A stretch of 64,000 nt of DNA from Escherichia phage vB_EcoD-Elw: the sequence record OR621298; one strand, given 5' to 3'. Below the pieces are notes generated by a model. That model did no database searches. It saw only the letters and a program-made list of their open reading frames with translations, and had not been told where the DNA came from. Positions 4,518 to 64,000 of this stretch are shown here, one piece after another (positions within the stretch are counted from its first letter, which is position 1; each line of letters starts with the position of its first letter). Position numbers and translations under genes: made by a program.

Positions 4518-4946
4518 ATGTTCAATAATGTATTCTCTAAAGAAGCTAACCCAATTTTGGTTAACTTTTGGCGTACTCTCCCGGCTAGCCTGTATAATGA
4601 GGCTATTAACTCCTTGAAAATATGGTGTGAGAATAACGAAATCTCCTTTGCTTTTAAAGATGATATTGATGAGGCCCCCTGTATTGGTCTAGTTGTGCAG
4701 GTAGAGGAGGGTCTTGAAGAGATTGTGGGCTGGAAAGAGTTAGACGAAATGGGCTTAGTTTTTGCGTTAAATTATAAGCTGTTTATGCCTGCTAAGCATC
4801 GCCTAGTTGTTAACTATAAAACTAGTGAATCTCCTGGTTTTCAGGTTAATGAACGTTATGGTTGGTCTTACTCACCGGAAGAAGTAAATGATGGTATCCA
4901 AAAACTTCGTCGTTTTGGTTATCAAATTCCGGGTTTAACCGCCTAA
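4518..4946 (+). CDS. hypothetical protein, tandem paralogue A
   Basis: 142 aa; shares DEAPCIGLVV, ELDEMGLVFALNY and YQIPGLT motifs with the next ORF. Confidence 0.5.
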   Translation: MFNNVFSKEANPILVNFWRTLPASLYNEAINSLKIWCENNEISFAFKDDIDEAPCIGLVVQVEEGLEEIVGWKELDEMGLVFALNYKLFMPAKHRLVVNYKTSESPGFQVNERYGWSYSPEEVNDGIQKLRRFGYQIPGLTA

Positions 4947-5348: not shown

Positions 5349-5439
5349 TTTTTATTAGCTAAACTCTGATTACCGAGTCATTTTGGCTCGGTTTTATCCG
5401 TACTTAAGACCAATGATAGCACCATCCGGAAAATTTTAC

Positions 5440-5468
5440 TTGCATGATGCCCAAAATCTTGATATAAT
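5440..5468 (+). promoter_or_regulatory. early sigma70 promoter with conserved leader
   Basis: TTGCAT 5440-5445 and TATAAT 5463-5468, 17-bp spacer; leader tatttatattgaattgagag. Confidence 0.6.
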
Positions 5469-5965
5469 ATTTATATTGAATTGAGAGACATTAGTAAAAA
5501 TTGATTTTGCTAATTTTTCTTGTTTACAATCCGCGATACGGAACAGTTAGGCTGCCCCATTAAGGGTTGTTTTAACTATTACTAGTGTTTATATTGCATT
5601 AGTTAATCTTCAATTAAGTGATCTGTGTACCCTGAATTCGGAAAGGTAAATCCAAACCGTGCATATTTAGCTCGTTATATAGGCAGAGTTTTATATGGGG
5701 GTGCGAACGAAAAGAGCAGCGAATGGCGGCACGTACAGTAGTCACCTACCAATAGGATAGTGAGGACAAATAGAATCGGCTTAGCGGCCAATGACCTAGG
5801 TTCTATTCTGTATATGAGCGAAGAGAGCACAGCACTGAGATATGATAACTTATTCATATTGCTTGATGATAATTAATGTTTACGTAAATAGTAGTAATAG
5901 TTGTTCTATTCTTTCTGAATAGTCCTAAAGAAAAGATTTCGATTAACCAACACAGGAGTATTGTT

Positions 5966-8755
5966 GTGTTTTCTATTCTCCAAGGTCACGCCGGATTTTC
6001 TCGTGATTTAGCAACAGGTATTTGGCGAGAAATCAAAGCGGAAGATTATACCTTTGCCAAGCGATTCTCGAAAAAGCATCCAGAAGGTAAACCAGCTTCT
6101 ATGCCCTTCAAATTTGATGTAATAGAAGAGCATGACCCGCAAAGCCTTGCCGAAATGTTACCACTTATGAGACGTTTAACGTCTGACCCTCATATCGTTG
6201 CGGTACGAGGTCGATGTCTTGCACCTAAAAATAACGTGCGACGTAAGAAAGGTAACTTTAATGTATCTAATCCTAGTAATATTATTGCTATGGACGTGGA
6301 TGGTATCCTAGATACCGGTGGGTATGACAAGTTTAACCTTGTTGGTATGGCCCGCCACATTATTAAGATGTTGAATAGTATTAGTGAGGACATGTTCCCT
6401 CTTGATGCAGGCTTTATAGCTCATGCATCGTCTTCGGCTGGGCTTAAACCAGGTATCCGAATGCACTTAATGCTAGAATCTAACGTCAAGGTAACTCAGG
6501 GTCAGTTAAAGTTCTTATTTACATCTATCAACGATAGTAGTAAGCAAAAATTTGGTTTTGATATTGCCGACTTAGCTTATTATTCATCTGTCCAGCTCCA
6601 CTATTTTGCCGACCCCTTATTTAGTGATGGTATTGTTGATCCGTTTAAAGCGGAGAGTAAGCCACGTCTGGTGTATGTTAAAGGTTCGAAAGTAAATTTG
6701 CCCAATAATCTGGTTGACTATGAAACAACTAGAGGGGAGTTTAAGGAAGAGTTTTATTCTTTACTTGATCAAATTAAAGGCAAAAAGATCGCGTCTGATA
6801 AAGTAGAAGAAACCATCAGCGAATTGGAAGAAGCTGAGGATGGGGTGTACCTGCGTATTATCCCCAAACTATACCATAGAGCATTAGAGGATGGTGTTGA
6901 TTTTGCATGGCTAGAACGTGAGATTAAACCCGCTTTATCTGAATATATTGCAACTAAAGATAACAGTCGTAATATTCAAGATTACTTTAATAACGGTCGT
7001 AAGCAGGCTCTCAAAGCGTTTGTTAATAATTCTAAACGTGAGATTCCATTAAATCTGAAAGGTGTTCCGCTCAAGAAGTTAGAAGTGGATTCTCCACCAG
7101 AAGTTCCGTACCTGAAGATTAACATTGTGCCTCCAAAAGGCCATATAACATTTGTTAAGGCAAGTCTTGGTACTGGTAAAACTACGGCAGTAACTAAATG
7201 GCTGGACGCAGGTGTTCTTCCTGGCAACTTTTTAGCAGTTACAAATACTAGAGCACTGGTATCTTCAAACGCTAAGAAATTTAGCGCAGGACAATATGAT
7301 AAGTCTGTAGATATGCTCAACTTTAAACGTGGAGCTATTGATCGTATGTCCACAACTATTCACTCTTTGCATAAGTTCAAAAGTTTTATTGGTCAAATAG
7401 ATACCATTTTTATTGATGAATGTGATGCTGTAATGAATGATCTATTATTCGCACCTGTTGTTAAGCAACGTCGCGAATGTATTCAAGTTCTACGTGACAT
7501 CCTCATGACAGCTAAAACTGTAATTCTATCAGATGGTGATATTAGTGCCGAAACTATTGAAGCATATGGTTCTCTAATTGATTTTGATAAACCAGTAGCA
7601 TTTTATAATCATCACCGTAAGATGCTGTCAAAAGCTCATGCTTATGAGTTCCCGGATGAGTCCAGTATTTGGGTTGCACTTCAGACTTCTCTAGAGATGG
7701 GTGAGAAATCTATCCTAGTATCTGATTGTGGGCCGGATGAACTGAATGAGAAGGGCATGGCGTTGCGTCGTAATACGGGTGCATTAGTTAAGGAAATCCA
7801 CTCAAACTCTACGTCTGATGTAGATATTAGACGTATTCTGGATTACACAACTAATGAGCTAATTGACCAACAAATTGATTGCTTATTATGTAGTCCATCT
7901 GTAACGAGTGGTGTTGACTTTAACTATTTTGATAACGTATTCGTTATCACTAGAACTAGCAACCAAGCGCCAAACATGCGTTTCCAAGCAATCAGGCGCG
8001 ACCGTGGTGCTCAGAATATCTATTATTTTATTGATAAATCCACTAGTGGGTTCTCCGCAGGTTCTGAACAATATAATATTGATGAAGGTTGGCTGGAGTT
8101 AGCACAGCAATTATACGCACGTCGCAGAGAACTAGAATCTAGGAACTATACTAGTACTTTACGTTATTACTTGCTTGATCAGGGTGCAACTATTGATATT
8201 TTCAGCGAAAGCTGGGGAACTATTGAAGGTGCTGGTAAAGAATACACAGAAGAGCGAATCAAAGCTATCCTACATTCAACTCCGGATTACTGTGCACCAC
8301 GTCATGCGGATGCGTATGAGGCTAAACTACTTCTTGTTCGCTATTATCATCTTGAGTCTATTAAAGATGTAACAGTTGAGCATGTTGAACAATATATCAA
8401 AGATAAACCGAATGATCGAGCTGCATTCTTCCATAAGATGCACGAGATGTTCTGGGAAGATATTAAGAAGTGTTCAAATGTGACCATTAAACCATTCATA
8501 GAGGCTCTGAAAGGTAAGAAGAAAGACTTCTTCCTTAAAACAGGTCAGAGTGCTAACCCAAAATATGCTAGAATGTATCTTGGTATGATGGGTATTGGTA
8601 AGGATATGAACACTGAAAATATTGTAGACTGGTACAGAACCTATTGTAAAATCGAGTGTATGCCAATCCCATATAAGTTTATGACTGATGAGGAGAAACA
8701 TATGCATGATGAAGCAATGGCAGAGCTAGGTGCTAGAAATGACAGTGAAGAATAA
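5966..8755 (+). CDS. P-loop NTPase, putative helicase or replication-initiation ATPase
   Basis: 929 aa; Walker A SLGTGKTTAV and DEAD-like IFIDECD; GTG start with AGGAG RBS. Confidence 0.55.
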   Translation: MFSILQGHAGFSRDLATGIWREIKAEDYTFAKRFSKKHPEGKPASMPFKFDVIEEHDPQSLAEMLPLMRRLTSDPHIVAVRGRCLAPKNNVRRKKGNFNVSNPSNIIAMDVDGILDTGGYDKFNLVGMARHIIKMLNSISEDMFPLDAGFIAHASSSAGLKPGIRMHLMLESNVKVTQGQLKFLFTSINDSSKQKFGFDIADLAYYSSVQLHYFADPLFSDGIVDPFKAESKPRLVYVKGSKVNLPNNLVDYETTRGEFKEEFYSLLDQIKGKKIASDKVEETISELEEAEDGVYLRIIPKLYHRALEDGVDFAWLEREIKPALSEYIATKDNSRNIQDYFNNGRKQALKAFVNNSKREIPLNLKGVPLKKLEVDSPPEVPYLKINIVPPKGHITFVKASLGTGKTTAVTKWLDAGVLPGNFLAVTNTRALVSSNAKKFSAGQYDKSVDMLNFKRGAIDRMSTTIHSLHKFKSFIGQIDTIFIDECDAVMNDLLFAPVVKQRRECIQVLRDILMTAKTVILSDGDISAETIEAYGSLIDFDKPVAFYNHHRKMLSKAHAYEFPDESSIWVALQTSLEMGEKSILVSDCGPDELNEKGMALRRNTGALVKEIHSNSTSDVDIRRILDYTTNELIDQQIDCLLCSPSVTSGVDFNYFDNVFVITRTSNQAPNMRFQAIRRDRGAQNIYYFIDKSTSGFSAGSEQYNIDEGWLELAQQLYARRRELESRNYTSTLRYYLLDQGATIDIFSESWGTIEGAGKEYTEERIKAILHSTPDYCAPRHADAYEAKLLLVRYYHLESIKDVTVEHVEQYIKDKPNDRAAFFHKMHEMFWEDIKKCSNVTIKPFIEALKGKKKDFFLKTGQSANPKYARMYLGMMGIGKDMNTENIVDWYRTYCKIECMPIPYKFMTDEEKHMHDEAMAELGARNDSEE

Positions 8756-8972
8756 AAAATGGGAAACAAGGAAGTTCCCAGTAAAAGAACGTAAAGTTCC
8801 TGTTTATGATACTTCGGAAAAGCTATGTAGGGTGGTACCACGTAGATTAGCTGGTATCCCTAACATATCCGAGTGGTTACTTAAACAACGGAAAACAAAC
8901 GTGTCTCTTCGCATCGGCTTTGAATTAGATAAAGTCTATGCTGAACTTGCTTCTTTGCTCAAGGAATCGTAA
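8730..8972 (+). CDS. hypothetical small basic protein
   Basis: 80-aa ORF overlapping the preceding stop. Confidence 0.3.
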   Translation: MLEMTVKNKKWETRKFPVKERKVPVYDTSEKLCRVVPRRLAGIPNISEWLLKQRKTNVSLRIGFELDKVYAELASLLKES

Positions 8973-8980
8973 AAATTTAT

Positions 8981-9009
8981 TTGCTTTCAGGAAAAATTTT
9001 CTGTATAAT
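8981..9009 (+). promoter_or_regulatory. early sigma70 promoter with conserved leader
   Basis: TTGCTT 8981-8986 and TATAAT 9004-9009, 17-bp spacer; leader ataaatttgagagaggag. Confidence 0.7.
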
Positions 9010-9040
9010 AGATTCATAAATTTGAGAGAGGAGTTTAAAT

Positions 9041-9745
9041 ATGGCCGGTTCTCGCAGAAAGAAACATATCCATGAAATCCCGGATGAAGTCTTTAAAAAA
9101 GTTATAGAGCATCTGGAGAACGGTGGTACTAAGAAAGCAGCTTGTGAGATGCTCGGCGTATCATCCAATCCAACTATGGAAAGGATGATTGAAGAGTGGC
9201 AAGACCGCCAGATTCAAGTTGCCGAAATGAAGAAAAAGAAACGTGGCACACTCATTGAAGGTATTGAGTTGGCCAACGTTATTGAACAGTATTTATCTGG
9301 TGATTCTTTTGAAGAGATTGCCGATCGTAATTATCGCTCTGTAGCAATGGTTAAATCTGTTCTGGAACGCTATGGTGCTCTGCTTCGTTTGAACGATATT
9401 GTAGACCCGTTGAATCCTCCTATTATTCCTGATGATGCTGTAGCAGAAGAATTTGAAGTTGGTGAGCTTGTTTGGGTTCCTGGATACCAGTGTATCGGTG
9501 AAATCAAAAAAGCAATGGATAATCCTGTTGGTTGCTACCGTGTATGGCTTCTATCGGAAGGCAAACAACAGAACGTTCATTATATGAATTATGAGCTGGC
9601 TTCTGTTAAACACCTGGAAAAGTTAGGAGTTGATGTAAAATCTCTGGGGTATAAATGGACTCGGGAAGAAGTCATTACGTTGATTAACGAAGCTGTTAAG
9701 GCCGCCTTGAAACTTGATAAAGAAAAAGGAAAACGCCGTGAGTAG
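9041..9745 (+). CDS. putative HTH DNA-binding early protein
   Basis: 234 aa; N-terminal HTH-like segment GGTKKAACEMLGVSSNPTMERM. Confidence 0.45.
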   Translation: MAGSRRKKHIHEIPDEVFKKVIEHLENGGTKKAACEMLGVSSNPTMERMIEEWQDRQIQVAEMKKKKRGTLIEGIELANVIEQYLSGDSFEEIADRNYRSVAMVKSVLERYGALLRLNDIVDPLNPPIIPDDAVAEEFEVGELVWVPGYQCIGEIKKAMDNPVGCYRVWLLSEGKQQNVHYMNYELASVKHLEKLGVDVKSLGYKWTREEVITLINEAVKAALKLDKEKGKRRE

Positions 9746-54023: not shown

Positions 54024-54174
54024 TTTGACTTTTGCCAAATTTCATAAGATTACACATGGAGGTGTGTCCACTGGCTGGCTAGATGAGAATGAGTCTCATT
54101 ACCGCCCGGTACTTAGCAGGCTAATAGTCACGGCATGTTATCATTACACACCGTGACTATTTCAACTTTAATTA

Positions 54175-54909
54175 TTACGCAACTTTTAATTTCTCAATAT
54201 ATTGTTGCGGGCTGCAACTATATTCTGCGCGTTCTTCCTCGGTCATACTTTCCCAACATAATTGCAGGCGGTCGGCTAGGAACTGATAATCATTATCATC
54301 CTCAAGAGATTCATCAATAAAGGTTTCACCTATCAATGTAACCCCAATCGATAGAATATCGTTAACGGCTTGCGCGTCCAGCGTTTTAAATCCGTATGAT
54401 GCCGCCGCTGATAGCACGCCTTTATGATCATCAATCATCGTGAAATCAGCGTTCGGATATAATTGTTTAAATAACTCAAAGTAATGGCTTTTATAAATAG
54501 CGTCTTTGCTGTGGTATATCTCGCTAACTTTATCAGCCTCAAAATATTTGTGTAGTGTATCGCGGGAAAATACACGGATATTACTATCCCCACGCCCTCG
54601 CAATCCTTGTTTGCGCAAATAATAATAATCCGACTTGCTCATTAGTCGAGCGGTGCAAATAATGTTTAACGTGTTAACGTCATTCATACATTGGCGCATA
54701 TATGTAACAAGGGGCAATAGTGTATCTTGCATTATTAAATCATGTTTGCAGGCTTCATTTTTATACTTATTTAAATCTAAATTGCCCTCGCTATCAAAGC
54801 AAGGCGCTACGCGATGGAAAGAATTAATGATAGTGCCGTCCAGATCCCAAATCATGACGCGGGAAATATGCGGGAAATTACGGGTAATATTCGTTTTAAC
54901 TTGATTCAT
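54175..54909 (-). CDS. dmp: HAD-family 5'-deoxyribonucleotidase (dmp-like)
   Basis: 244 aa; HAD motif I WDLDGTII and C-terminal MIDDHKG; first gene of the pre-early block. Confidence 0.7.
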   Translation of the reverse strand: MNQVKTNITRNFPHISRVMIWDLDGTIINSFHRVAPCFDSEGNLDLNKYKNEACKHDLIMQDTLLPLVTYMRQCMNDVNTLNIICTARLMSKSDYYYLRKQGLRGRGDSNIRVFSRDTLHKYFEADKVSEIYHSKDAIYKSHYFELFKQLYPNADFTMIDDHKGVLSAAASYGFKTLDAQAVNDILSIGVTLIGETFIDESLEDDNDYQFLADRLQLCWESMTEEERAEYSCSPQQYIEKLKVA

Positions 54910-54989
54910 TTTGTTACGTTCTCCATTTAAGGGATTAGATTAATTCAGCATTACCCGCTATTTATAAGCGGGTAATAATAAATTAACTA

Positions 54990-55382
54990 TTAAAGACCAT
55001 ACGCCAACGCATCAGCAATAAAACTAATATCTTCACCAGATACACCGGAACGAATGCCCGCGCAGGTATATACCTTTGCGCTGGTCAATTGATCATCGAG
55101 GCAAGCGGGGCAAGGCGCGACAACTGCAAAGGCTAGGCCGGATTTTACGGCGTCGATGATAATCGTTTCTTGTTTCACAGTGTCAACATAAACACCTTTT
55201 GCTTTAATATGGCTAGTTAGTTTACCTTGCGTATAGGCAAAGGTAGTAACCTGCAAAGCGTCGTTAAAGTCCAATAGCTCATCAATAACGTGCCCCGCCT
55301 CGACGTGGTAACGTTCACCATTAGAATAAACCAGAACAATGGAAGATTGAGCGCGATCGAATGGGATATTTTGCTTTTTCAT
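54990..55382 (-). CDS. hypothetical pre-early protein
   Basis: 130-aa ORF. Confidence 0.45.
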   Translation of the reverse strand: MKKQNIPFDRAQSSIVLVYSNGERYHVEAGHVIDELLDFNDALQVTTFAYTQGKLTSHIKAKGVYVDTVKQETIIIDAVKSGLAFAVVAPCPACLDDQLTSAKVYTCAGIRSGVSGEDISFIADALAYGL

Positions 55383-55422
55383 ATTTATAAAACTCCAATT
55401 AATTTAATAAAGGGTATTTAAT

Positions 55423-55680
55423 TTACTTGATAATAATCTGCATTTGATACGGCGTTAATTCACCATTTACGGGTAAATTATTATCGCTTAGCCACTCATA
55501 AAAAGCGTCATCATCGTCAAAAGGGATAATATCATTATCACGATAATCGACCGTAATAATCCCATCCGTATTAGTTTTGGCGGCTAGGATAGGCCCGAAG
55601 CTGTAAACTTTATCGGATTCCATTTCATCCGGTGAAATAAATGCTTTTTCGTCCAGCGTTTTGGGTAATGTAACTTTCAT
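55423..55680 (-). CDS. hypothetical acidic pre-early protein
   Basis: 85-aa ORF. Confidence 0.45.
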   Translation of the reverse strand: MKVTLPKTLDEKAFISPDEMESDKVYSFGPILAAKTNTDGIITVDYRDNDIIPFDDDDAFYEWLSDNNLPVNGELTPYQMQIIIK

Positions 55681-55736
55681 TCTAATTTAGCTCCTATAAT
55701 AGCGGCTATATTTCAAGCCGCTAGGGTATTAATTAT

Positions 55737-57401
55737 TTACGCAAAAAATTTACCGTTCTTAAAATCGATCAAAGTACGCTGACCATTTGCATAGGTAATT
55801 AAATGCGTTTGTGTCCAGCTTGACGCGCCAACGTTGTAACCCATGTCCAGACTACCAGCCACGCCAGCGGTATATACCCCGCCGTAAATGCTGGCGGTAT
55901 GAGTGTGCCCCGTGTTTAATTTGCCCAATTTCTTAAACTGTTTCGGATTGCCACGGCTGCCGTTTATGCCATTGTGACCGTGTACGCCGCATTCAATGCC
56001 TGCAATTTTAAATGATTGGTCAGTCGTTAGGAAAATGGCGTTAAACTCGCAACCTGCAACCTTACGCAGCGCATAATCTAGCACGTTGAAAGTATCGTCT
56101 TTTTCTGCAATAGCTCCGTAAATCGCGGCATTCAGGCGGTGATATAGTTCCGCGTTCGCTGGGTCGTCTTTAATGTTAGCATTACGATCATCAAGCCAAC
56201 GGGATAGCGCCAAATCGTGATTCGATTCAACAATGATTGTTTGCGAGAAATCGCGCTCCATTGATTCCAGTACGCGCCCCGTATCGATGAGATCATCCAG
56301 AACTTTATCACGTCCGGCGGCGTATTGTTTTGCTAGGAATACACCCGAAGCGCGGTTGTGATGGTTGCGTGATGTAAAATCGTGAACGTCATGGATAAAC
56401 TGATATTTTGGTTTAAGAATATCAAGCAAGCTATTTTCGCCAGCCCATGACGCAATGGCACAATCATCATCAAGTTTTTCGGCGTGTATGTCGCCATATT
56501 GCAAGCCTAAAACATGCCCCGATGTTTCATAGCATCCGGCGGGAGTAGCGCAAACATTCAGATCATAAAACACCCCGCTTTCGTCCATTGTTTCAAGCTG
56601 GCGAACAAAAAACTCACCGTCTTCGTCGAACTCAACAATCAGCGCACCGAAGTTATGCAGTGCTTCCGCTTTCTGTCCTGCTTTCTGCTGGATGTAATTT
56701 TTAAGCGTTGCCGTGCCAGTTGAATACATGCGGCGCACTACTTCACCTTTTAAAGCTGGCACGCTTTCGGCGGTGATTTTAGCGTGACCAATTGCCAGAC
56801 CTTCCAGATTAAGCGCGGTTGCAGTTTCAGCGAATCCAGAAAGCGGATAATCTGCGGTGGGCAAAACATTAATTTCAGCCATGAAAGCAAAACGGCGATT
56901 ATTCAAAAACACGTTTTTGCTGCAAATATATTTATCGAACGCGGAATCATATTTTATTCCATCCGCGCCCTCGCCATTTTGGAATCCGTTTTTATTATAA
57001 ATATACTTGCTAACCAGCAAATCAGCGCCGATATATTTAGCAAATTGCTCCAGTGAGGCTAAAAAGTTTTTATGCGGGAACGTATTATTCTGAATCGATG
57101 TAATAATAAAGCGTTTGCCTTGTTTTACTTCCCAGCTTTCCACCGTGCTAGAAACAATCCCCGCCGCTTCTGGGCGCTCATCGTTTTTAATGGCTTTTGC
57201 TACTTTCGCCGCTTTCGGTTTCGCTGGTTTATTTGCTTCCAGCCAATCACAAATAGCGGTGGAATGTTTTGGAGTATCGTAAACCGCTTTTGATATATCG
57301 TCACAAACTTCCAATTTAGTGGCGCGCAGGCGTTTACCGTAGAAATTAAAGTCAGCGGCCATTTTCAGGATAACGGTTTGTTTTTCTGCGGAAATAATCA
57401 T
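55737..57401 (-). CDS. A1: A1-like pre-early protein, metallophosphoesterase-fold nuclease
   Basis: 554 aa; calcineurin-like motifs GDIH, ESNHD, HGH, GHTH; size close to the 556 aa I recall for T5 A1. Confidence 0.7.
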   Translation of the reverse strand: MIISAEKQTVILKMAADFNFYGKRLRATKLEVCDDISKAVYDTPKHSTAICDWLEANKPAKPKAAKVAKAIKNDERPEAAGIVSSTVESWEVKQGKRFIITSIQNNTFPHKNFLASLEQFAKYIGADLLVSKYIYNKNGFQNGEGADGIKYDSAFDKYICSKNVFLNNRRFAFMAEINVLPTADYPLSGFAETATALNLEGLAIGHAKITAESVPALKGEVVRRMYSTGTATLKNYIQQKAGQKAEALHNFGALIVEFDEDGEFFVRQLETMDESGVFYDLNVCATPAGCYETSGHVLGLQYGDIHAEKLDDDCAIASWAGENSLLDILKPKYQFIHDVHDFTSRNHHNRASGVFLAKQYAAGRDKVLDDLIDTGRVLESMERDFSQTIIVESNHDLALSRWLDDRNANIKDDPANAELYHRLNAAIYGAIAEKDDTFNVLDYALRKVAGCEFNAIFLTTDQSFKIAGIECGVHGHNGINGSRGNPKQFKKLGKLNTGHTHTASIYGGVYTAGVAGSLDMGYNVGASSWTQTHLITYANGQRTLIDFKNGKFFA

Positions 57402-57442
57402 AGTAATAAAACTCCATTAAAGGGATTAAAAAACGTTTGTTA

Positions 57443-57486
57443 TTGGCAAATATTGCCAAATATAACGCCTATTATTTGAGGCGTTA
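57443..57486. promoter_or_regulatory. two palindromes upstream of the A1-like gene
   Basis: ttggcaa-ata-ttgccaa (57443-57459) and taacgcct-8nt-aggcgtta (57463-57486). Confidence 0.4.
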
Positions 57487-57498
57487 TAATTTGCAACA

Positions 57499-57744
57499 TT
57501 AATTTAAAGGCATAAGGCTAGAACTAACACCACAAACAACGGCGGCAATAAAACAAATCAGACCTAAACGCTTTGCTAACTTAGATTTACGTTTAAAATA
57601 ATATGAATCTAAATCATTTTGAAAATAAGCGAATAGTAATGAGGCCGCCATAATAAATAAGCCTAGAATTAAGGATTCAGTAGGGTAAAAGATCATTTTA
57701 ATAACTCCAGTCAAAGGGAAATTATAGTGGGGAATATTCCCCAC
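57499..57744 (-). CDS. small two-helix membrane protein
   Basis: 81 aa with two hydrophobic segments. Confidence 0.45.
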   Translation of the reverse strand: MGNIPHYNFPLTGVIKMIFYPTESLILGLFIMAASLLFAYFQNDLDSYYFKRKSKLAKRLGLICFIAAVVCGVSSSLMPLN

Positions 57745-57753
57745 TAATTAAAT

Positions 57754-58170
57754 TTATTCGCCTGCGGCTTGTTTCACTTCATCGGCAACGCCTAACAGTT
57801 GCGCCACGGCGTCCAGCGTTTCCAGTTTTGCGCTTTCCAGTGATGCCAGATCGTCGGCGTCTTTGATAATGCCGGAATCGATAGCGTGTTTTGCAATAAC
57901 GCGCACATAATGCGCTTTGCGGATTGAGCTACCGCCGCCAACTTTGCGCGGCTTATCGCTTTTCTGATACGCTTTTGCGCTGGTCAATTTTGAGCGAACG
58001 GACACGGGGGAGGCCGCGCCAACTGCTTTTGCAATCTCTTTCAGGCCGTCGCTATTTGCGAAATCTAAACCGTTTTCATTAATTAACTGCTGGTACATGG
58101 TAACAGCTTTTTGGGTGTTTTCTTCATTCCATGCAAATTTTGCGGATTTTTCGGTTTTAACGTTAGCCAT
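57754..58170 (-). CDS. A2-like pre-early protein (putative)
   Basis: 138 aa; position directly upstream of A1; assignment by synteny only. Confidence 0.4.
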   Translation of the reverse strand: MANVKTEKSAKFAWNEENTQKAVTMYQQLINENGLDFANSDGLKEIAKAVGAASPVSVRSKLTSAKAYQKSDKPRKVGGGSSIRKAHYVRVIAKHAIDSGIIKDADDLASLESAKLETLDAVAQLLGVADEVKQAAGE

Positions 58171-58269
58171 GATTGTAGCTCCTATTAGTTTAATTTAAGG
58201 GATAAGATTAACATAATGTTAATCGTTATATCCCCCGAACTACTAGGGGGATATAAAGTTAACACTAAA

Positions 58270-58521
58270 TTATAAAACAGCTTCCCATTTTTCGTTACGC
58301 TGGACAACCTTTACAACGTCGCCGGATTTAACGCGAACGCTAAAAACGGTTTTGCCGTTGTTACTCCGTTCCGTTTCAGCGTATACCGCGTCGATTGTAT
58401 CGAACGGCATAAGCGCCGCGCCTTTAATGCGTTCGGCCTTTCCGGTTAATTCATCCGTTTTAGTAACGAAAGGAATAAAAACGGATTGACCAACTTTCGG
58501 CGCGGTAATAACGTTTTGCAT
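58270..58521 (-). CDS. hypothetical pre-early protein
   Basis: 83-aa ORF with AGGAG RBS. Confidence 0.45.
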   Translation of the reverse strand: MQNVITAPKVGQSVFIPFVTKTDELTGKAERIKGAALMPFDTIDAVYAETERSNNGKTVFSVRVKSGDVVKVVQRNEKWEAVL

Positions 58522-58556
58522 AATATAAACTCCTAGTTATTTGGGGATTGTTCCGC

Positions 58557-58586
58557 ATTACCTGCTAGAAAGTAACAGCAGGTAAT
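58557..58586. promoter_or_regulatory. palindrome upstream of the 83-aa ORF
   Basis: attacctgct-agaaagtaac-agcaggtaat, perfect 10-bp arms, no U-tract. Confidence 0.4.
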
Positions 58587-58719
58587 AAGTAACAATCCGC
58601 TCGCCAATATAATCAATTTAAAGAACTCCACGCAGGCCGCTATATCCCAGTTAGGGGGCGGGGCACATTATGGTAAGTGCCGACCGTCAAATTTTATCAA
58701 GTTATCGCTCTTATCGAAC

Positions 58720-58744
58720 TGGGTACATCTTAAAGCCTATCGGC
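58720..58744. repeat. 25-bp perfect inverted repeat, copy A
   Basis: tgggtacatcttaaagcctatcggc; exact reverse complement of 58988-59012. Confidence 0.85.
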
Positions 58745-58751
58745 TAGGGTG

Positions 58752-58955
58752 TCAAACAATTTTTTGCAGTTTTTTATGATTTTCTTTTAAGTCAATCATA
58801 ATATTACGCCAGATCATTTCCAGACCTTGCTGGCGGCCTTTCTTGTACTGCTTAAATCGATATTTTACCGATCTTTGCGCTACTGTCAACAAATTTTTTG
58901 TTTTGCTGTCCAGTGCCTTGCTAGGTTTACCAGTGATCAATAAAGTTTGTTTCAT
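58752..58955 (-). CDS. small basic protein enclosed by the 25-bp inverted repeats
   Basis: 67 aa, Lys/Arg-rich; ATGA-type overlap with the upstream ORF. Confidence 0.4.
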   Translation of the reverse strand: MKQTLLITGKPSKALDSKTKNLLTVAQRSVKYRFKQYKKGRQQGLEMIWRNIMIDLKENHKKLQKIV

Positions 58956-59242
58956 ATCGTCGATTCCTTATAATGTATAAGTTTACCGCCGATAGGCTTT
59001 AAGATGTACCCAATTTTTAAAGAGCGCGGCGGTAAACTTCCCGCCGTGTAGTTCGTCATTGCCGCCCTACGAGATAAATAATAGGGGATTCCCGAAAATG
59101 GCGCAACCTTATTTTTGTAAAGAAATGTAAAGACAAACGCCACCGGACACCATGCGGCGACCGGGGCGCGGCGCATTAAAATTAAAAGAAACGGGCGCGC
59201 GAATACCATAAAACCCAGCAGGTTGGCAAGTAATTTTTTCAT
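58952..59242 (-). CDS. hypothetical protein with N-terminal hydrophobic segment (doubtful)
   Basis: 96-aa ORF; weak RBS; its coding sequence contains inverted-repeat copy B. Confidence 0.3.
   Translation of the reverse strand: MKKLLANLLGFMVFARPFLLILMRRAPVAAWCPVAFVFTFLYKNKVAPFSGIPYYLSRRAAMTNYTAGSLPPRSLKIGYILKPIGGKLIHYKESTI
58988..59012. repeat. 25-bp perfect inverted repeat, copy B, with nested local stem
   Basis: gccgataggctttaagatgtaccca; flanked by gtttaccgcc (58981-58990) and ggcggtaaac (59028-59037). Confidence 0.85.
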
Positions 59243-59411
59243 TTATATTTGCCTTGCCCTACTTGACAAAACTTAAAAAGCTCGTGGTAGCGATAAACGA
59301 GGGTAGGCAATGCAATGGCATGGCTAAAACTTTCATCGCGTTCTAGGGCGTTTTAGGCGCATTCTAGCCTTGTTGATAACTTATCCCCAAAAGCAAAAAT
59401 GAAATTTTCCT

Positions 59412-59448
59412 AGTTATCCACTTGACTTTTATTTTCCAGTGGATAACT
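59412..59448. promoter_or_regulatory. inverted pair of DnaA-box-like sites
   Basis: agttatccac-17bp-gtggataact; each half is TTATCCACt, one mismatch from the consensus TTATCCACA. Confidence 0.5.
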
Positions 59449-59594
59449 ACTTATTTTATGAAATAAATTAATTGACTTTTATTTGTTAGTATGCATCGGA
59501 AGAATAGCAGACTAATAATTACTAGAATAATAATCATGCTGGTGGATTGTAACGGCCTAAACTATCAGCAGACTATTAATCACGAAAAATCTCG

Positions 59595-59625
59595 TTAGCT
59601 AACTAACTATTTCATGATGTATAAT
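59595..59625 (+). promoter_or_regulatory. candidate sigma70 promoter with early-type leader
   Basis: TATAAT at 59620-59625 followed by atacatataaatt, as in the early promoters; -35 weak. Confidence 0.35.
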
Positions 59626-59741
59626 ATACATATAAATTAATGAGAAATAATAATTATAATAAATAATAACTACAGTAAATAATAACTATAAGAAACTATC
59701 GGCCTAAGTGAGAACCACTATCATTTAAGTTATACACAAAG

Positions 59742-59811
59742 TTATCCACAGCACTTTTTGACTTTACACGATAGGCGGCGATATAAGGACTTTTACACAG
59801 ACTTATCCACA
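59742..59811 (+). promoter_or_regulatory. two consensus DnaA boxes bracketing a candidate promoter
   Basis: TTATCCACA at 59742-59750 and 59803-59811; TTGACT 59758-59763 and TATAAG 59782-59787 lie between them. Confidence 0.5.
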
Positions 59812-60104
59812 GGTTATTCCACTGTATAAATATACAGGGTAAAAAGGTAGTGTTAACAACTGCAATCAATTTTAAGCGGCTTAAATCGCATTCTAACGAG
59901 CTAAACGCTGCGGGGTAATATTAAAGTAAAGCCTTAATGCGTCACCCTGGTGGCTTCGCCGTGGTTTGCTCTTTATTGCACCGCTGCGCGGTTAGCATAA
60001 AAATAGGCGCTAGGCAAGGAAAATAAAAAGGTAAAATAATATTTGCCTATGCTAGAAATTTACCTTTATCATTCACTCACCGATTAACGAGGGAGGCCGA
60101 ACAA

Positions 60105-61115
60105 ATGAGGCTTTATAAACCTGATAATGCCACCGTTTTAAAAGGTGCATTGCGCAACCTGCTGGATGGTAGCAAGTCAACCAGCATTAAACATTTTATT
60201 AACAAGATTGAAACTATTCATCAAAACTTTTTTGATGATTATGACGCTTATGATATGGATAGTTTTCTACCCTTATATAGACAAGGGGCAACGCTAGTTT
60301 TATATAATCGGGATTGCCATATCTTTACAGGCAGGGGAGCGGGGCCGGATACCGATTTTATTGTTGCGCAGGGTAATAATATTGTTGCGTATCATAGCAA
60401 TTCAGGCCGTCAATCATTTAATATAAATAGTTTTGAGCTTATTGGACTTGATCTGATAAATGGACTTTCTAGCATTGAGGGATTTTTAGATGTTATCTGG
60501 AAGTATTTACCCGCTGGATGGCATAAGCCGGATAACGACGGATCTCAATATACCGGTATAATGGCTTTTGATGGCGACGGTAATTTTTTGTTACCACGGG
60601 AGCTATACCCATATATTTATGATGGGGATATAGAAAGCGCTGGTTTTTCTTTCTGGAAAGATGAAGATCAGATTATTGACAGCGTAGAAAACCATGCTGT
60701 AAATTCTAACACTCAAAGCGTTAACACTCAAACTACTGAAAACAAAGGAAAAAACACTATGACCAAGATTGCTAACATCGTTGCCGCTAATAAATCCGCC
60801 GTTGTAAATGCTGCAAAACTGGAAGCGGGTAAAATTGCACTGACTCAAATTACGAAAGTAGCGGCTAAAAAAGCACCGTTTATGATTAAAGGTTATATTG
60901 ATACACCTATCGGTCGAGTAGTGATTGCCAACCTGCTGGGCGTAGCGGTTGACCAGTACGCCACAAGTAACCAAAAGGCGAAAGCGGTGGCAGGTGCAGC
61001 TATGGAAGCGGCTATGTTAGAAATGGTGCAAAGTTTTAACATCGCTGAGATGATTGATGAAATGGTAAAAGGTATTGATATTTCTACTTTTACCACTAGC
61101 ACCGAAAGCGAGTAA
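60105..61115 (+). CDS. hypothetical pre-early protein
   Basis: 336 aa; first gene of the rightward cassette; GGGAGG RBS. Confidence 0.55.
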   Translation: MRLYKPDNATVLKGALRNLLDGSKSTSIKHFINKIETIHQNFFDDYDAYDMDSFLPLYRQGATLVLYNRDCHIFTGRGAGPDTDFIVAQGNNIVAYHSNSGRQSFNINSFELIGLDLINGLSSIEGFLDVIWKYLPAGWHKPDNDGSQYTGIMAFDGDGNFLLPRELYPYIYDGDIESAGFSFWKDEDQIIDSVENHAVNSNTQSVNTQTTENKGKNTMTKIANIVAANKSAVVNAAKLEAGKIALTQITKVAAKKAPFMIKGYIDTPIGRVVIANLLGVAVDQYATSNQKAKAVAGAAMEAAMLEMVQSFNIAEMIDEMVKGIDISTFTTSTESE

Positions 61116-61180
61116 TAATATTAAGCGGGGATTGTTACCCCGCTTTACTATTCCCTTGTTAACTAATAGGAGGCTAATAA

Positions 61181-61675
61181 ATGGCTGATGAAAAATATGG
61201 CTTCTCACTGGGAGAAGTGAGCACGGCAAAACATGATATGATCATTTTGGTCGATTGTCATACTGGCTATTGCGGGGAAGGGAACACCGAGGAATATTTT
61301 GTTCCTGCTGGTACGGATCTGGACGCTTTCGCTCAGGAAATGGCTATTGATAATGCTTCTCGTTTTGGTAGCGATGGTTACGAAGACGAAGAAACTGGCG
61401 AATGGTATGAAAATGAAAACGTATATGCAAGCCTTTATCATTATCAATTAAGTAAATCCGGCACATATGTAAACGGCGGCGATCCTATTAATTCCGTCAT
61501 GAGATTAATTATTAAATATGGCGGCGTCGAGATAGTTGGTAACAAAGCGGTAATATACGCAAATCGATTAAAACAGCTTGTTTATATTCCTGATAGTACC
61601 CGATGGGATGAATATGCTGTTTTGCATGACGAATTGAAACGATGTTTCAATATTGAATCCTTACAAGTAGTCTAA
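61181..61675 (+). CDS. hypothetical strongly acidic pre-early protein
   Basis: 164 aa, about 29 Asp+Glu versus 11 Lys+Arg; AGGAGG RBS. Confidence 0.55.
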   Translation: MADEKYGFSLGEVSTAKHDMIILVDCHTGYCGEGNTEEYFVPAGTDLDAFAQEMAIDNASRFGSDGYEDEETGEWYENENVYASLYHYQLSKSGTYVNGGDPINSVMRLIIKYGGVEIVGNKAVIYANRLKQLVYIPDSTRWDEYAVLHDELKRCFNIESLQVV

Positions 61676-61780
61676 TGTAAAGTTTTGTAAAGGTCGCCTT
61701 TTATGGTGGCCTTTTTTGTTATAATGCCTTTACACCGTTTGAGGACGGTTGAAAATTTTCCCAAAAATTGGAGGCTTAAA

Positions 61781-62011
61781 ATGGTTGCTTATTCTTCTGC
61801 TAGTCATCTGTTCACCGCTCAAGGCTGGGTATCTAACCGCGTTATTATTCACGAAATGGTGCAAGAATATGGCATTGCTAAAACATACAATACCATTCAG
61901 GCGCTTTATGATAATGATCAAATCGATCAGCAAACGGCGGGCTTTTTGCTGGATACCCTGAAAGCAGAACATTGCACCAAAAAACAAGCGGCTAAAATTG
62001 TTTTAATGTAA
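61781..62011 (+). CDS. hypothetical small protein
   Basis: ATG at 61781 with GGAGG RBS; the ORF track starts further upstream. Confidence 0.45.
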   Translation: MVAYSSASHLFTAQGWVSNRVIIHEMVQEYGIAKTYNTIQALYDNDQIDQQTAGFLLDTLKAEHCTKKQAAKIVLM

Positions 62012-62052
62012 TTAATAACGGGGCGTTATTTTCGCCCCACTAACTAGGGGGA

Positions 62053-62208
62053 ATGAAAATGGTTATTTTTCGAGCTATTTTAGCGGGTATCTTGGGCGCT
62101 ATTTTATCGTTGTTTGCAATAGCTTTCGGCGTTCACGCGGTTATTATTGGCGCGGGTATCGCTGCATTTTCTTATCTGCTGGGCTGCATGACTAGTAAAG
62201 GAGAATAA
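62053..62208 (+). CDS. small hydrophobic membrane protein, 51 aa (not in ORF track)
   Basis: ATG 62053; MKMVIFRAILAGILGAILSLFAIAFGVHAVIIGAGIAAFSYLLGCMTSKGE. Confidence 0.4.
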   Translation: MKMVIFRAILAGILGAILSLFAIAFGVHAVIIGAGIAAFSYLLGCMTSKGE

Positions 62209-62210
62209 AA

Positions 62211-62423
62211 ATGATCCGCAATGTTTCCCTTGCCCGTTCGAAAGGCTTTAAGCTGGTGGATGTTAACACGTTCGAGCGTGAAGATTGTAAAATCGAATAT
62301 GTAGCACGTAATAAGAATGCCTTTCGTGTTACAGAAAAGAAATTTGACAAGCGCGGCAACGTGATCGCTGAAACGGTTAAACACTTTGCCACCTTTTACG
62401 CTGCGTTTCGTGGGGTGTTATAA
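62211..62423 (+). CDS. hypothetical small protein
   Basis: 70 aa; AAAGGAGAA RBS. Confidence 0.5.
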   Translation: MIRNVSLARSKGFKLVDVNTFEREDCKIEYVARNKNAFRVTEKKFDKRGNVIAETVKHFATFYAAFRGVL

Positions 62424-62424
62424 A

Positions 62425-62769
62425 ATGGTTATTTATGAGGGCAACCGCTTTGTTGCTAATTGCCGCCCTGCATTGCTAGCAAATTACTTAAATCAGCTTT
62501 CACCAGCTTATAAGGGCGTTATTAATATTTATGAAGGCAAGGCGCATTATAAAATCAATGCGGTCGTTGCCCGTGAACTAGCGTTTCAATTTTTGACCTT
62601 TGCATCTTGTGACGTTCAGGTCATGGGTGAAGCGTTAATTGCAGAAAATGAAGATGATTTTATTAATATTTTTCGCAAGATATGCACCGAGCGCCTGATA
62701 ATGAAAGGCGCTTATATTCAATCCACTGCGGATAGTATTGAAACAGCGTTTCGAAAGGTGGCGCAATGA
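62425..62769 (+). CDS. hypothetical protein
   Basis: Start placed at ATG 62425, just after the upstream stop. Confidence 0.45.
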   Translation: MVIYEGNRFVANCRPALLANYLNQLSPAYKGVINIYEGKAHYKINAVVARELAFQFLTFASCDVQVMGEALIAENEDDFINIFRKICTERLIMKGAYIQSTADSIETAFRKVAQ

Positions 62770-62969
62770 GCAATAAAATTGTTGTAACCAAAATCAGTAC
62801 AATGGTTGATGTTTTTTACGTGCCCGATACGCCGGAAAACCGGCAAGCGGTCGAGCGTGGCGAGTATGATAAAGTGATTTATGATCACGATGGTTATTAT
62901 CAGCATTTGGTCGATTCCTATGGGGAAGAGGAAAAGATCACGCATCAATTACCGGAGGATGGTTTATGA
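62766..62969 (+). CDS. hypothetical small acidic protein
   Basis: 67 aa; overlapping start and stop. Confidence 0.45.
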   Translation: MSNKIVVTKISTMVDVFYVPDTPENRQAVERGEYDKVIYDHDGYYQHLVDSYGEEEKITHQLPEDGL

Positions 62970-63221
62970 AACGATGGTTTAATCACTGGTATAAGCGGTT
63001 TTTAGTACGCCGTCGCAAATCTAGACATCAAGATGAGTGGCGGGAGTGGGCAAAGCGTAACGGTTGCCCGCTACTCTGAGAACGACGGGGATTAGCTCCC
63101 CGTTTTTCCATGCCTCCAGTTAAATACCCCCTTGTTTTAGTATCCCCACCAAAATTAAACGCGTTAGAATGCGATCTAGGACGTTTTAGCGGTATATTAG
63201 AATTATTCACTACATAGGAAT

Positions 63222-63332
63222 ACTGTATATTTATACAGTAGGATAAGCTGTGGATAAGTCTGTTAATAACGCCTCAAAATGGCTAGGATTCTGTCAAGTC
63301 AAATCGTGCTGTTAATAAGTCTGTGGATAACT
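63222..63332. promoter_or_regulatory. DnaA boxes (inverted orientation) and palindrome
   Basis: TGTGGATAA at 63249-63257 and 63322-63330; palindrome actgtata-tt-tatacagt at 63222-63239. Confidence 0.55.
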
Positions 63333-63344
63333 TAAATAATAGTG

Positions 63345-63506
63345 TTTCTCACTTCCATTCTTAAATGCAAATCATTATCATTCGCATTTCACTTTCTAAA
63401 TGAGAATCATTTCACTTCTTGAATAGTTCTCATTTCACTTTTTAAATGCGAATTATTATCATTCTCATTTCGCTTTTTAAATGATTCTTATTATCATTCG
63501 CATTCA
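63345..63506. repeat. five degenerate ~30-bp direct repeats
   Basis: Units of form tt(t/c)tTAAATG(c/a)gAAT(t/c)ATTATCATTCGCATTTCAC, imperfect, no unique spacers. Confidence 0.7.
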
Positions 63507-63509
63507 GGC

Positions 63510-63536
63510 GCGCAGGGCAATTGCCCTGCGCTTTTG
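63510..63536 (+). terminator. GC-rich palindrome with T-tract
   Basis: gcgcagggc-aatt-gccctgcgc followed by tttt. Confidence 0.45.
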
Positions 63537-63757
63537 TGCAAATCCGACATTGCTCCACGGGTGTTACGTGCGGGCGTGTATGTGCGAATCCGACAATTTT
63601 TGGTAGTGTGCAAATCCGACCCGAAAAATTTTTATAGTGTGCAAATCCGACAATGAATTTTCCCAAAAACTCCAGCAATCCGATGCTGCGCATCAATCCT
63701 GTGGAATTAGCTAGAATATGTGCAAATCCGACATGGGTTTATTTGTGCGAATCCGAC
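63536..63757. repeat. six direct 13-bp iterons GTGC(A/G)AATCCGAC
   Basis: Copies at 63536, 63582, 63608, 63639, 63720 and 63745, same orientation; degenerate copy near 63674. Confidence 0.75.
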
Positions 63758-64000
63758 AAGATTTTTGTGACTTTGATTGGAGGGTGTGTGATTGTATGGG
63801 TTTGAGGAGAAGATGAGAGAGCGAGAAAAATTTGAGGGAACTGTGAGAGGGGCGCAGGATTGGTGCGGAGCACCTGATTTGCGGGGATTTTGGGGAAGAG
63901 TTGAGATAATTTGGGAAGATTTGGGATAGGTGCAGATAAAGTAAAATTTTATTAGCAAAACGAGGCAAAATAGCTTGACAAGTGAAAATTTCTGTGGCTC

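Follow-up and report, generated by a model that had tools for sequence, protein, structure and literature searches.

What do DnaA boxes do in the non-coding DNA between the pre-early genes of a T5-like phage? We analysed a 64,000-nt stretch of Escherichia phage vB_EcoD-Elw (record OR621298; hereafter the window), and all coordinates given here are window positions unless another record is named. The intergenic gap between the flanking open reading frames (ORFs) spans 59243-60104 and is 862 bp long, in agreement with an earlier note on this DNA that had placed a gap of about 860 bp between the leftward A1/A2 operon and the rightward cassette. That note had listed a near-consensus inverted pair of DnaA boxes (59412-59448), two perfect boxes, and a promoter-like sequence TTGACT-18 bp-TATAAG between the perfect boxes, and all of these were found at their places. 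It had read the gap as a divergent pre-early control region in which host DnaA might gate a promoter or anchor the incoming DNA. We arrive at another reading, which we favor on balance: a conserved module of about 140 bp, here in its promoter-proximal copy, occupies 59706-59852 and serves host proteins as a landing pad instead of being a promoter.

A duplicated module with double DnaA boxes

The two modules and their DnaA boxes are as follows.

59706-59852, plus strand: proximal module, equivalent to the T5 'IRC-spacer-IRD' (Repeat Region 2) plus palindrome D
59730-59750, plus strand: double DnaA box 1-2, TTATACACA-aag-TTATCCACA
59742-59750, plus strand: perfect DnaA box TTATCCACA, second half of a double box
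59791-59811, plus strand: double DnaA box 3-4, TTTTACACA-gac-TTATCCACA, starting 61 bp after the start of the first pair
59803-59811, plus strand: perfect DnaA box TTATCCACA, second half of a double box
59814-59822, plus strand: half-box TTATTCCAC, 2 bp past box 4 and overlapping the first bases of the LexA operator-like site
63208-63354, minus strand: distal module, equivalent to the T5 'IRD'-spacer-IRC'', injection-stop region
63249-63269 and 63310-63330, minus strand: distal double boxes
63249 and 63322, minus strand: the other perfect TTATCCACA boxes, in the distal module

The proximal module is part of the terminal repeat and has the leftward dmp-A1-A2 operon on one side and the rightward operon on the other. 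From 59707 onward the window aligns with T5 (AY587007) from 6022 onward, and the T5 annotation places IRC at 6022-6060 and IRD at 6112-6152. The segments 59706-59852 and 63208-63354 form a 147-nt inverted repeat that is 76% complementary, with the partner 3.4 kb to the right, as expected from T5, where a copy of about 131 bp lies in the non-coding injection-stop region. In both modules the DnaA/DnaA* boxes are paired with 3 bp between them and occupy fixed positions. The proximal module has four consensus boxes and its distal partner has two perfect ones. The half-box at 59814-59822 reads TTATCCTAC in most relatives, and its box-like part is TTATYC only. The double-box halves, the palindrome at 59820-59839, and the partner at 63208-63354 were absent from the earlier note.

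A copy of the module was present in 42 of the 43 T5-like loci examined, and none was detectable in locus L036. In most phages, the 2-4 kb separating the two modules contain zero DnaA boxes. Together the proximal and distal modules bracket the rightward pre-early operon.

The DnaA-box module is an already known element. The first DnaA box of the T5 repeats was noted in 1987, and Davison (2020) described, in 25 T5-like phages, eight DnaA or near-DnaA boxes that are always paired and 3 bp apart, two each in IRC, IRD, IRD', and IRC', with a constant spacer (bioRxiv 10.1101/866236). In the same preprint it was hypothesized that membrane-bound DnaA holds the entering DNA, and two later papers, one of them PMC10644984, still treat the role of the boxes as a hypothesis. 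Anchoring of the incoming DNA by DnaA, which the earlier note had offered as one of its two possibilities, is plausible, but it is Davison's published hypothesis and not a new one. What may be new is confined to the conservation across the family and to the LexA operator next to the boxes.

The DnaA sites cluster far more tightly than chance would allow. Counting sites with one mismatch or none, there are seven in the 441 bp of 59371-59811, and the maximum per 450 bp was three in 300 Markov simulations. The window contains four perfect TTATCCACA boxes where 0.6 are expected, and none of 100 shuffles reached four, but this raw count overstates the number of independent events since the four boxes copy one duplicated unit. 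Conservation across phages is stronger evidence than the number of boxes.

Conservation of the DnaA boxes

An alignment of 62 distinct proximal or distal modules, taken from about 30 phages, gave 246 box instances. Box positions 1, 2, 4, 8, and 9 were 96-100% invariant. Position 3 was A or T, position 5 was any base, and the only other frequent change was C to A at position 6. This variation is the published TTWTNCACA degeneracy, suggesting that the boxes are constrained as DnaA-type sites. The proximal 3-bp linker had seven sequences among the phages with the boxes unchanged, and the 22-bp spacer was wholly different between the proximal and distal paralogues.

The geometry of the boxes also matches that of host sites. 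A study in 2024 using chromatin immunoprecipitation with sequencing found E. coli DnaA in vivo almost only on tandem boxes 2 or 3 bp apart, and one added base between paired boxes abolishes DnaA binding (PMC11317965). The tandem boxes in the window are spaced by 3 bp, within the 2-3 bp rule, and each phage module contains this in vivo double-box geometry twice.

More distant relatives were sampled outside Davison's 25 phages. This sample consisted of A1-containing phages of Pectobacterium, Klebsiella, Proteus, Aeromonas, and two Vibrio lineages, whose A1 is 33-74% identical to that of the window, and single-protein scans with A2 added nine loci. Clusters of perfect boxes were found in the pre-early regions of these relatives (L044-L049 and L052-L060), often beside a LexA-like palindrome. 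There are six perfect boxes in Aeromonas phage AhSzq-1 and five in each Vibrio phage, with about 0.2 expected per locus of about 25 kb, and the two-cluster layout and the polarity in the Aeromonas and Vibrio phages match those of the window phage. In a census of 9-mers, only TTATCCACA recurred within the pre-early DNA of each of the seven Demerecviridae clades sampled (26 copies), and the best of 1,680 same-composition permutations of it had 7 copies. By these comparisons, the cluster is a genuine and conserved set of DnaA-type sites. It is likely that host DnaA binds the predicted boxes, and the module as a whole is a real element that very probably binds host proteins.

The sites could instead be read by a phage protein such as A2, or they could act purely as DNA structure (pairing, recombination, or cruciforms), so that their likeness to DnaA and LexA sites would be incidental. 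The modules are indeed long inverted repeats with further conserved blocks, and the GAC linker is kept even in the Vibrio phages, suggesting common ancestry of the whole unit. A2, a phage DNA-binding protein, is present in every clade, but it is only 28-40% identical across clades, and yet the 9-mer of E. coli DnaA and the CTGT-N8-ACAG frame of the LexA-like palindrome are kept. Since A2 has diverged and TTATCCACA is unchanged, a conserved host protein is the more economical reader. The variation also falls at positions tolerated by DnaA and LexA, and divergence between the spacers of the paralogues (76% identity) speaks against selection for pairing itself. Furthermore, motif and polarity are kept in the Vibrio, Aeromonas, and Proteus relatives, which argues for a host factor over a phage protein. 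Thus, reading by a phage protein or by structure is quite improbable.

A LexA-like palindrome beside the boxes

Each module of the window carries a palindrome that resembles the SOS operator.

59820-59839, proximal module: LexA (SOS) operator-like palindrome CACTGTATAAATATACAGGG, 'palindrome D' of T5, 16/20 to TACTGTATATATATACAGTA
63221-63240, distal module: LexA operator-like TACTGTATATTTATACAGTA, 19/20 to the E. coli SOS consensus TACTGTATATATATACAGTA

The proximal site is CTGT-N8-ACAG, a 16-bp palindrome with an all-A/T centre, and in the module the operator-like sequence stands 8-10 bp past the second double box. In 300 simulated windows, the best match to the SOS consensus was 17, and usually it was 12-14. 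The runner-up 9-mers in the census were those of palindrome D, and a LexA-like palindrome was found in six of the seven clades. It starts 7-9 bp past the last DnaA box in the T5-like, Klebsiella, Pectobacterium, and Proteus phages and in one Vibrio lineage. CTGT and ACAG vary little or not at all in the 62 modules and in 11 sites from six distant clades, and the centre drifts (AAAT/ATTT, GGAT, ATCC), which is the behavior of a LexA site. T5 and most relatives have the distal variant TACTGTATAAATATACAGTA, one base off the tisB operator TACTGTATAAATAAACAGTA, which has been used in LexA binding studies (PMC3159453). We consider it probable that LexA binds palindrome D. In T5 (L002), palindrome D is at 6135-6154 and 9330-9349.

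Davison's preprint treats the palindromes as possible restriction sites and mentions neither LexA nor SOS (bioRxiv 10.1101/866236), and the T5 GenBank records have no LexA site annotation. None of the literature we found joining LexA with T5 concerns palindrome D, but T5 papers from 1987, 2005, and 2015 were not covered by this search, so priority is uncertain. The LexA reading of palindrome D appears to be the only new lead, and it is not that of the T5 literature.

Promoters of the pre-early region

The window matched 387 phage records over 59000-60200. All of them are T5-like and the top one is Escherichia phage SP15 (94%), and by alignment the window covers the right end of a genome of this type. 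Aligned to T5 (AY587007) and BF23, the complete terminal repeat is 54052-64000, and the last base of the window is the end of the T5 repeat. The gene order, from ORF calls and the alignment to T5 and BF23, is as in T5. The genes and the promoters or promoter-like sites are as follows.

54175-54909, leftward: dmp
55737-57401, leftward: A1
57754-58170, leftward: A2
up to 59242, leftward: small ORFs
58755->58727, minus strand: P_D/E20 homologue, TTGACA-17-TAAGAT; T5 4664-4738 and 4810-4867 map onto the leftward pair
58889->58862, minus strand: P_H22 homologue, TTGACA-16-TAAAAT, mapped from the coordinates of the T5 leftward pre-early promoter
59758-59787, plus strand: promoter-like element of the earlier note, TTGACT (59758-59763)-18-TATAAG (59782-59787)
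59829-59856, minus strand: predicted leftward promoter-like site TTAACA-16-TATATT (10/12), with its -10 inside the LexA operator
60043-60072, plus strand: P11 homologue, TTGCCT-18-TATCAT, mapping onto the T5 promoter annotated at 6411-6489 / 6422-6490
from 60105, rightward: gene-011 homologue

The pre-early promoters of T5 with experimental support are P_H22 and P_D/E20, which are leftward and overlap hdi, and P11, which is just upstream of 011. P11 activity was detected by primer extension (PMC7472727), and its sequence is absent from the supplement of that paper. Judged from the position on T5, the rightward operon has its real promoter in the P11 homologue. The distance from the boxes to P11 is 230 bp, and to the leftward promoters it is more than 800 bp. 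Since the validated promoters map elsewhere, at 58862-58889, 58727-58755, and 60043-60072, the gap is a long spacer between promoters and not the divergent control region that it had been taken for.

The first promoter to be weighed is the rightward sigma-70 promoter TTGACT-18-TATAAG, which, switched by DnaA occupancy, would time pre-early transcription. Its hexamers are present with an 18-bp spacing and match at 10/12 positions, and DnaA is a known transcription factor (PMC11317965). However, TATAAG has G at -7 and is without the conserved T, and the element is absent from the list of our sigma-70 scan. Among the 31 distinct proximal modules, the 10/12 form occurs in three, about 12 have nothing, and no -10 ends in T. 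The equivalents are ATGATT in BF23, TTAACT-19-TATAGC in T5, and, in the distal paralogue, TTTGAG in the place of the -10. Downstream, the nearest gene lies about 320 bp away and is served by the validated P11, and the module can be deleted in T5 with the phage still viable (see below). A promoter gated by DnaA at this position is thus very unlikely.

We considered two other sets of sequences in this connection. The conserved spacer hexamer TTGAC(A/G) is 3-4 bp out of register, with no -10 at any allowed distance. The repeat TTGACTTTW, which the earlier note had placed at 54025, 59422, 59472, and 59758, is present at all four positions and totals seven in the window against 2.45 expected. As a recurring -35 it was rejected, since neither the copy at 59422 nor that at 59472 has a -10 partner; both belong to the 13-nt direct repeat TTGACTTTTATTT. 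The copy at 54025 falls outside the terminal repeat, about 27 bp away.

Alternatively, a leftward promoter might sit at the right edge of the module, with the module as its operator and with LexA and DnaA as repressors, and breakdown of host DNA would relieve the repression by LexA. The candidates are TTAACA-16-TATATT (59856->59829) and TTTACC-[16-bp SOS box]-TGGAAT/TAGGAT, with the transcript running toward the small ORFs upstream of P_H22. The former matches at 10/12, includes A2 and T6 of the -10, and has this -10 within the LexA operator, a layout of operator over promoter core that is classic for SOS genes. It is found in about 20 of the 31 proximal modules (18 of them at 10/12), and it appears to be a better promoter candidate than TTGACT-18-TATAAG. 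Moreover, a -35-like TT(T/G)ACC abuts the palindrome in T5-like, Proteus, and Aeromonas modules. On the other side, T5 and about one third of its relatives are without the site, and so is every distal copy. Overlap of the LexA operator with a leftward promoter-like site is thus confined to the proximal copies. The distal copies have the LexA site and the boxes with no promoter-like flank, and therefore promoter control cannot explain the whole module. We regard this explanation as rather unlikely.

Upstream boxes and the AT-rich block

Further boxes lie to the left of the proximal module.

59371-59389: back-to-back near-boxes TTATCAACA (minus strand) and TTATCCCCA (plus strand), 1 bp apart (starts 59371 and 59381), in the territory of T5 'Repeat Region 1'
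59414-59422 (plus strand) and 59438-59446 (minus strand): convergent box pair TTATCCACT, each 8/9 to the consensus

The near-boxes at 59371 and 59381 had not been listed before. The TTATCCACT pair, which is the inverted pair of the earlier note, sits in an inverted repeat with 15-nt arms (59411-59449) whose DNA fold is -9.2 kcal/mol (z = -6.2). Aeromonas and Vibrio relatives have convergent pairs of perfect boxes with unrelated spacers, suggesting that the box, and not the hairpin, is the conserved unit. The upstream boxes (59371-59446) make up a cassette that about 13 of 32 distinct T5-like phages carry, BF23 among them, and T5 is without it and has unrelated sequence in its place. These boxes are a lineage-specific accessory of module-like kind.

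With the upstream boxes on one side and a block of 10-13% G+C (59610-59699) directly left of the module, the cluster could be an oriC-like origin in which DnaA boxes stand beside an AT-rich unwinding element. However, in T5 the left flank including the AT-rich block is replaced by an HNH-endonuclease insertion, so the block is not conserved. The origins of T5 are near the genome center, and the replication genes are absent during first-step transfer (bioRxiv 10.1101/866236). There is no IHF site either: IHF sites (WATCARNNNNTTR) number nine in the window against 10.9 expected, and zero in the terminal repeat. An IHF partner in the style of datA, DARS, or oriC is therefore not supported. As the module is also deletable in T5, an origin here is extremely unlikely.

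The same flank has other features. The 230-bp AT-rich non-coding stretch 59477-59706 corresponds to the place where T5 has the HNH homing-endonuclease gene hegG with its own promoter (L002, 5419-6021). It contains a direct repeat, 59506-59527 / 59567-59588 (AGCAGACTAATAATTACTAGAA / AGCAGACTATTAATCACGAAAA), with a 61-bp spacing, as between the box pairs, and with a shared CAGACT motif. This repeat may be a decayed third module, and in T5 the HNH-endonuclease insertion takes the place of the stretch.

Dispensability and possible role of the module

A 2026 preprint reported that T5 deleted 'from hegG to 017', and carrying additional left-side deletions, is viable and forms smaller plaques. By mapping the published primers onto T5, we placed this deletion at about 5394-9160 in AY543070, corresponding to about 59449-62970 in the window. 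The proximal module, P11, and genes 011-017 are lost, and the distal module is kept. Since this deletion is viable, the proximal module is at most accessory and is nonessential in T5.

What the alignments gave is the anatomy of the module, its conservation, and the selective pattern of its sites, and from these we infer binding of DnaA and LexA and an action of the resulting complexes. During entry of the first 8% of the genome, each module would be loaded with host DnaA, as a dimer per double box and about 4-5 protomers in all, and a LexA dimer would load beside it. These nucleoprotein complexes could organize or hold the first-step-transfer DNA. Possible routes are pairing of the two modules, tethering by DnaA as proposed by Davison, or blocking of polymerases that leave the operon. 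The distal module is located just before the pause point of first-step transfer. A role of the modules in the transfer pause is doubtful at best. The wider proposal, that the modules are composite DnaA/LexA operators across the Demerecviridae that hold the first 8% of the DNA in the pause, and that their release aids the resumption of transfer or the shut-off of pre-early genes, is speculative and seems unlikely. If there is such a release, its agent could be A1/A2, or a breakdown of host DNA driven by A1 that frees or cleaves DnaA and LexA.

Several points weigh against the module as a landing pad for the two host proteins. The viable T5 deletion takes out an entire proximal module. It is not obvious that proteins on DNA that has already entered could halt the rest. 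Some modules, such as the proximal cluster of Vibrio phage Noelle and locus L054, have a degenerate LexA-like site or none, and the conserved module elements AGTGAGAAACACT and TTGAC(A/G) are explained by neither DnaA nor LexA. We found no published DnaA- or LexA-binding experiment for any T5-like phage. Lastly, T5 grows on recA1 laboratory strains and is reportedly independent of host DnaA for replication, indicating that neither LexA cleavage nor initiation driven by DnaA is essential.

What halts T5 DNA after 8% entry, and what sets it going again, has been a standing question since about 1960, and the only candidates acting in cis are the non-coding repeats that mark the boundary. The landing-pad reading gives a sharper handle on these repeats, because the boxes have the double-box geometry that DnaA requires in vivo and a consensus-grade LexA operator adjoins them. 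It also makes the question more directly testable, as two host proteins are named and dnaA(ts), lexA(Def), and lexA(Ind-) are standard strains. The hegG-to-017 deletion provides a minimal T5 background with one module left per repeat.

Comparison with known systems

The module is the same element as the T5 IRC-spacer-IRD / IRD'-spacer-IRC' (annotation of Wang 2005; Davison 2020). Both phages have it between the pre-early operons with an inverted partner, 3-bp pairs, a pair-to-pair distance of 61 bp, and palindrome D. In the window all four proximal boxes are within the consensus, whereas T5 has lost one through a 2-bp deletion. The window phage is also without the HNH insertion of T5, and has four extra upstream near-boxes (59371-59446) that T5 is without.

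Double boxes on the E. coli chromosome, such as those upstream of purH (Stringer, Fitzgerald & Wade 2024, PMC11317965), are likewise tandem 9-mers 2-3 bp apart, of which one is usually perfect and the other within about two mismatches. They sit upstream of genes and regulate them. In contrast, the phage element has two pairs plus a LexA site, is duplicated in inverted orientation in a virulent phage, and has no adjacent validated promoter. Host SOS operators such as that of tisB (PMC3159453) have CTGT-N8-ACAG with an A/T center, as in the phage, and overlap host promoters, whereas the distal phage copy is without a promoter-like flank. As the phage is virulent, it has no lysogenic switch to control.

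oriC, datA, and DARS also have multiple DnaA sites of high and lower affinity with fixed orientation and spacing. Compared with them, the module lacks an IHF site and a conserved unwinding element, it is not known to act in replication or in the recycling of DnaA, and its proximal copy is dispensable. DnaA-regulated promoters include dnaA, mioC, and lambda pR, and the uvrB control region has a LexA box and a DnaA box together. The host regulators are the same in these cases, but there the sites overlap or closely flank a mapped promoter, which does not hold for the promoter proposed in the earlier note.

Other conserved blocks and repeats

Within the modules, the block AGTGAGAAaCACT is kept in both copies (59714-59727 and 63333-63346) and in the Klebsiella modules. 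A second block, TTGACTTGACA at 63295-63305 on the minus strand and TTGACTTTACA at 59758-59768 in the proximal copy, is also kept in both modules and in Klebsiella. AGTGAGAAACACT is kept in Proteus, and TTGAC(G) in Pectobacterium phage My1. The TTGACA block is a perfect -35 hexamer without a -10 partner.

We also turned to Rhizobium phage RHph_Y2_11, which has an A1 homologue, to test the LexA motif after a switch of host, but its genome is not organized as in T5 and it was uninformative.

Between the module and P11, a non-coding block of about 150 bp (59870-60020) is strongly conserved with T5 and BF23. An Rfam scan of 58500-64000 gave only sub-threshold chance matches, none of them for this block. 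The segment 59874-59905 pairs with 63155-63186 (inverted repeat B' of T5), directly left of the distal module. The arms of another inverted repeat, CCCAGCAGGTTGGCAA (59214-59229 / 60925-60940), match perfectly over 16 bp, are 1.7 kb apart, and lie each within an ORF. It was rejected as a functional pair because no examined relative keeps the two arms paired; it is probably due to chance.

To the right of the distal module, 63346-63520 and 63526-63764 contain dense direct repeats and palindromes, including 58-nt units. The repeat TGTGC(A/G)AATCCGACA has at least six copies within these arrays. They correspond to the DRC/DRE/DRD repeats of T5, in the injection-stop region, and 9-mers of the second repeat (63526-63764) recur in Pectobacterium, Klebsiella, and one Vibrio relative.

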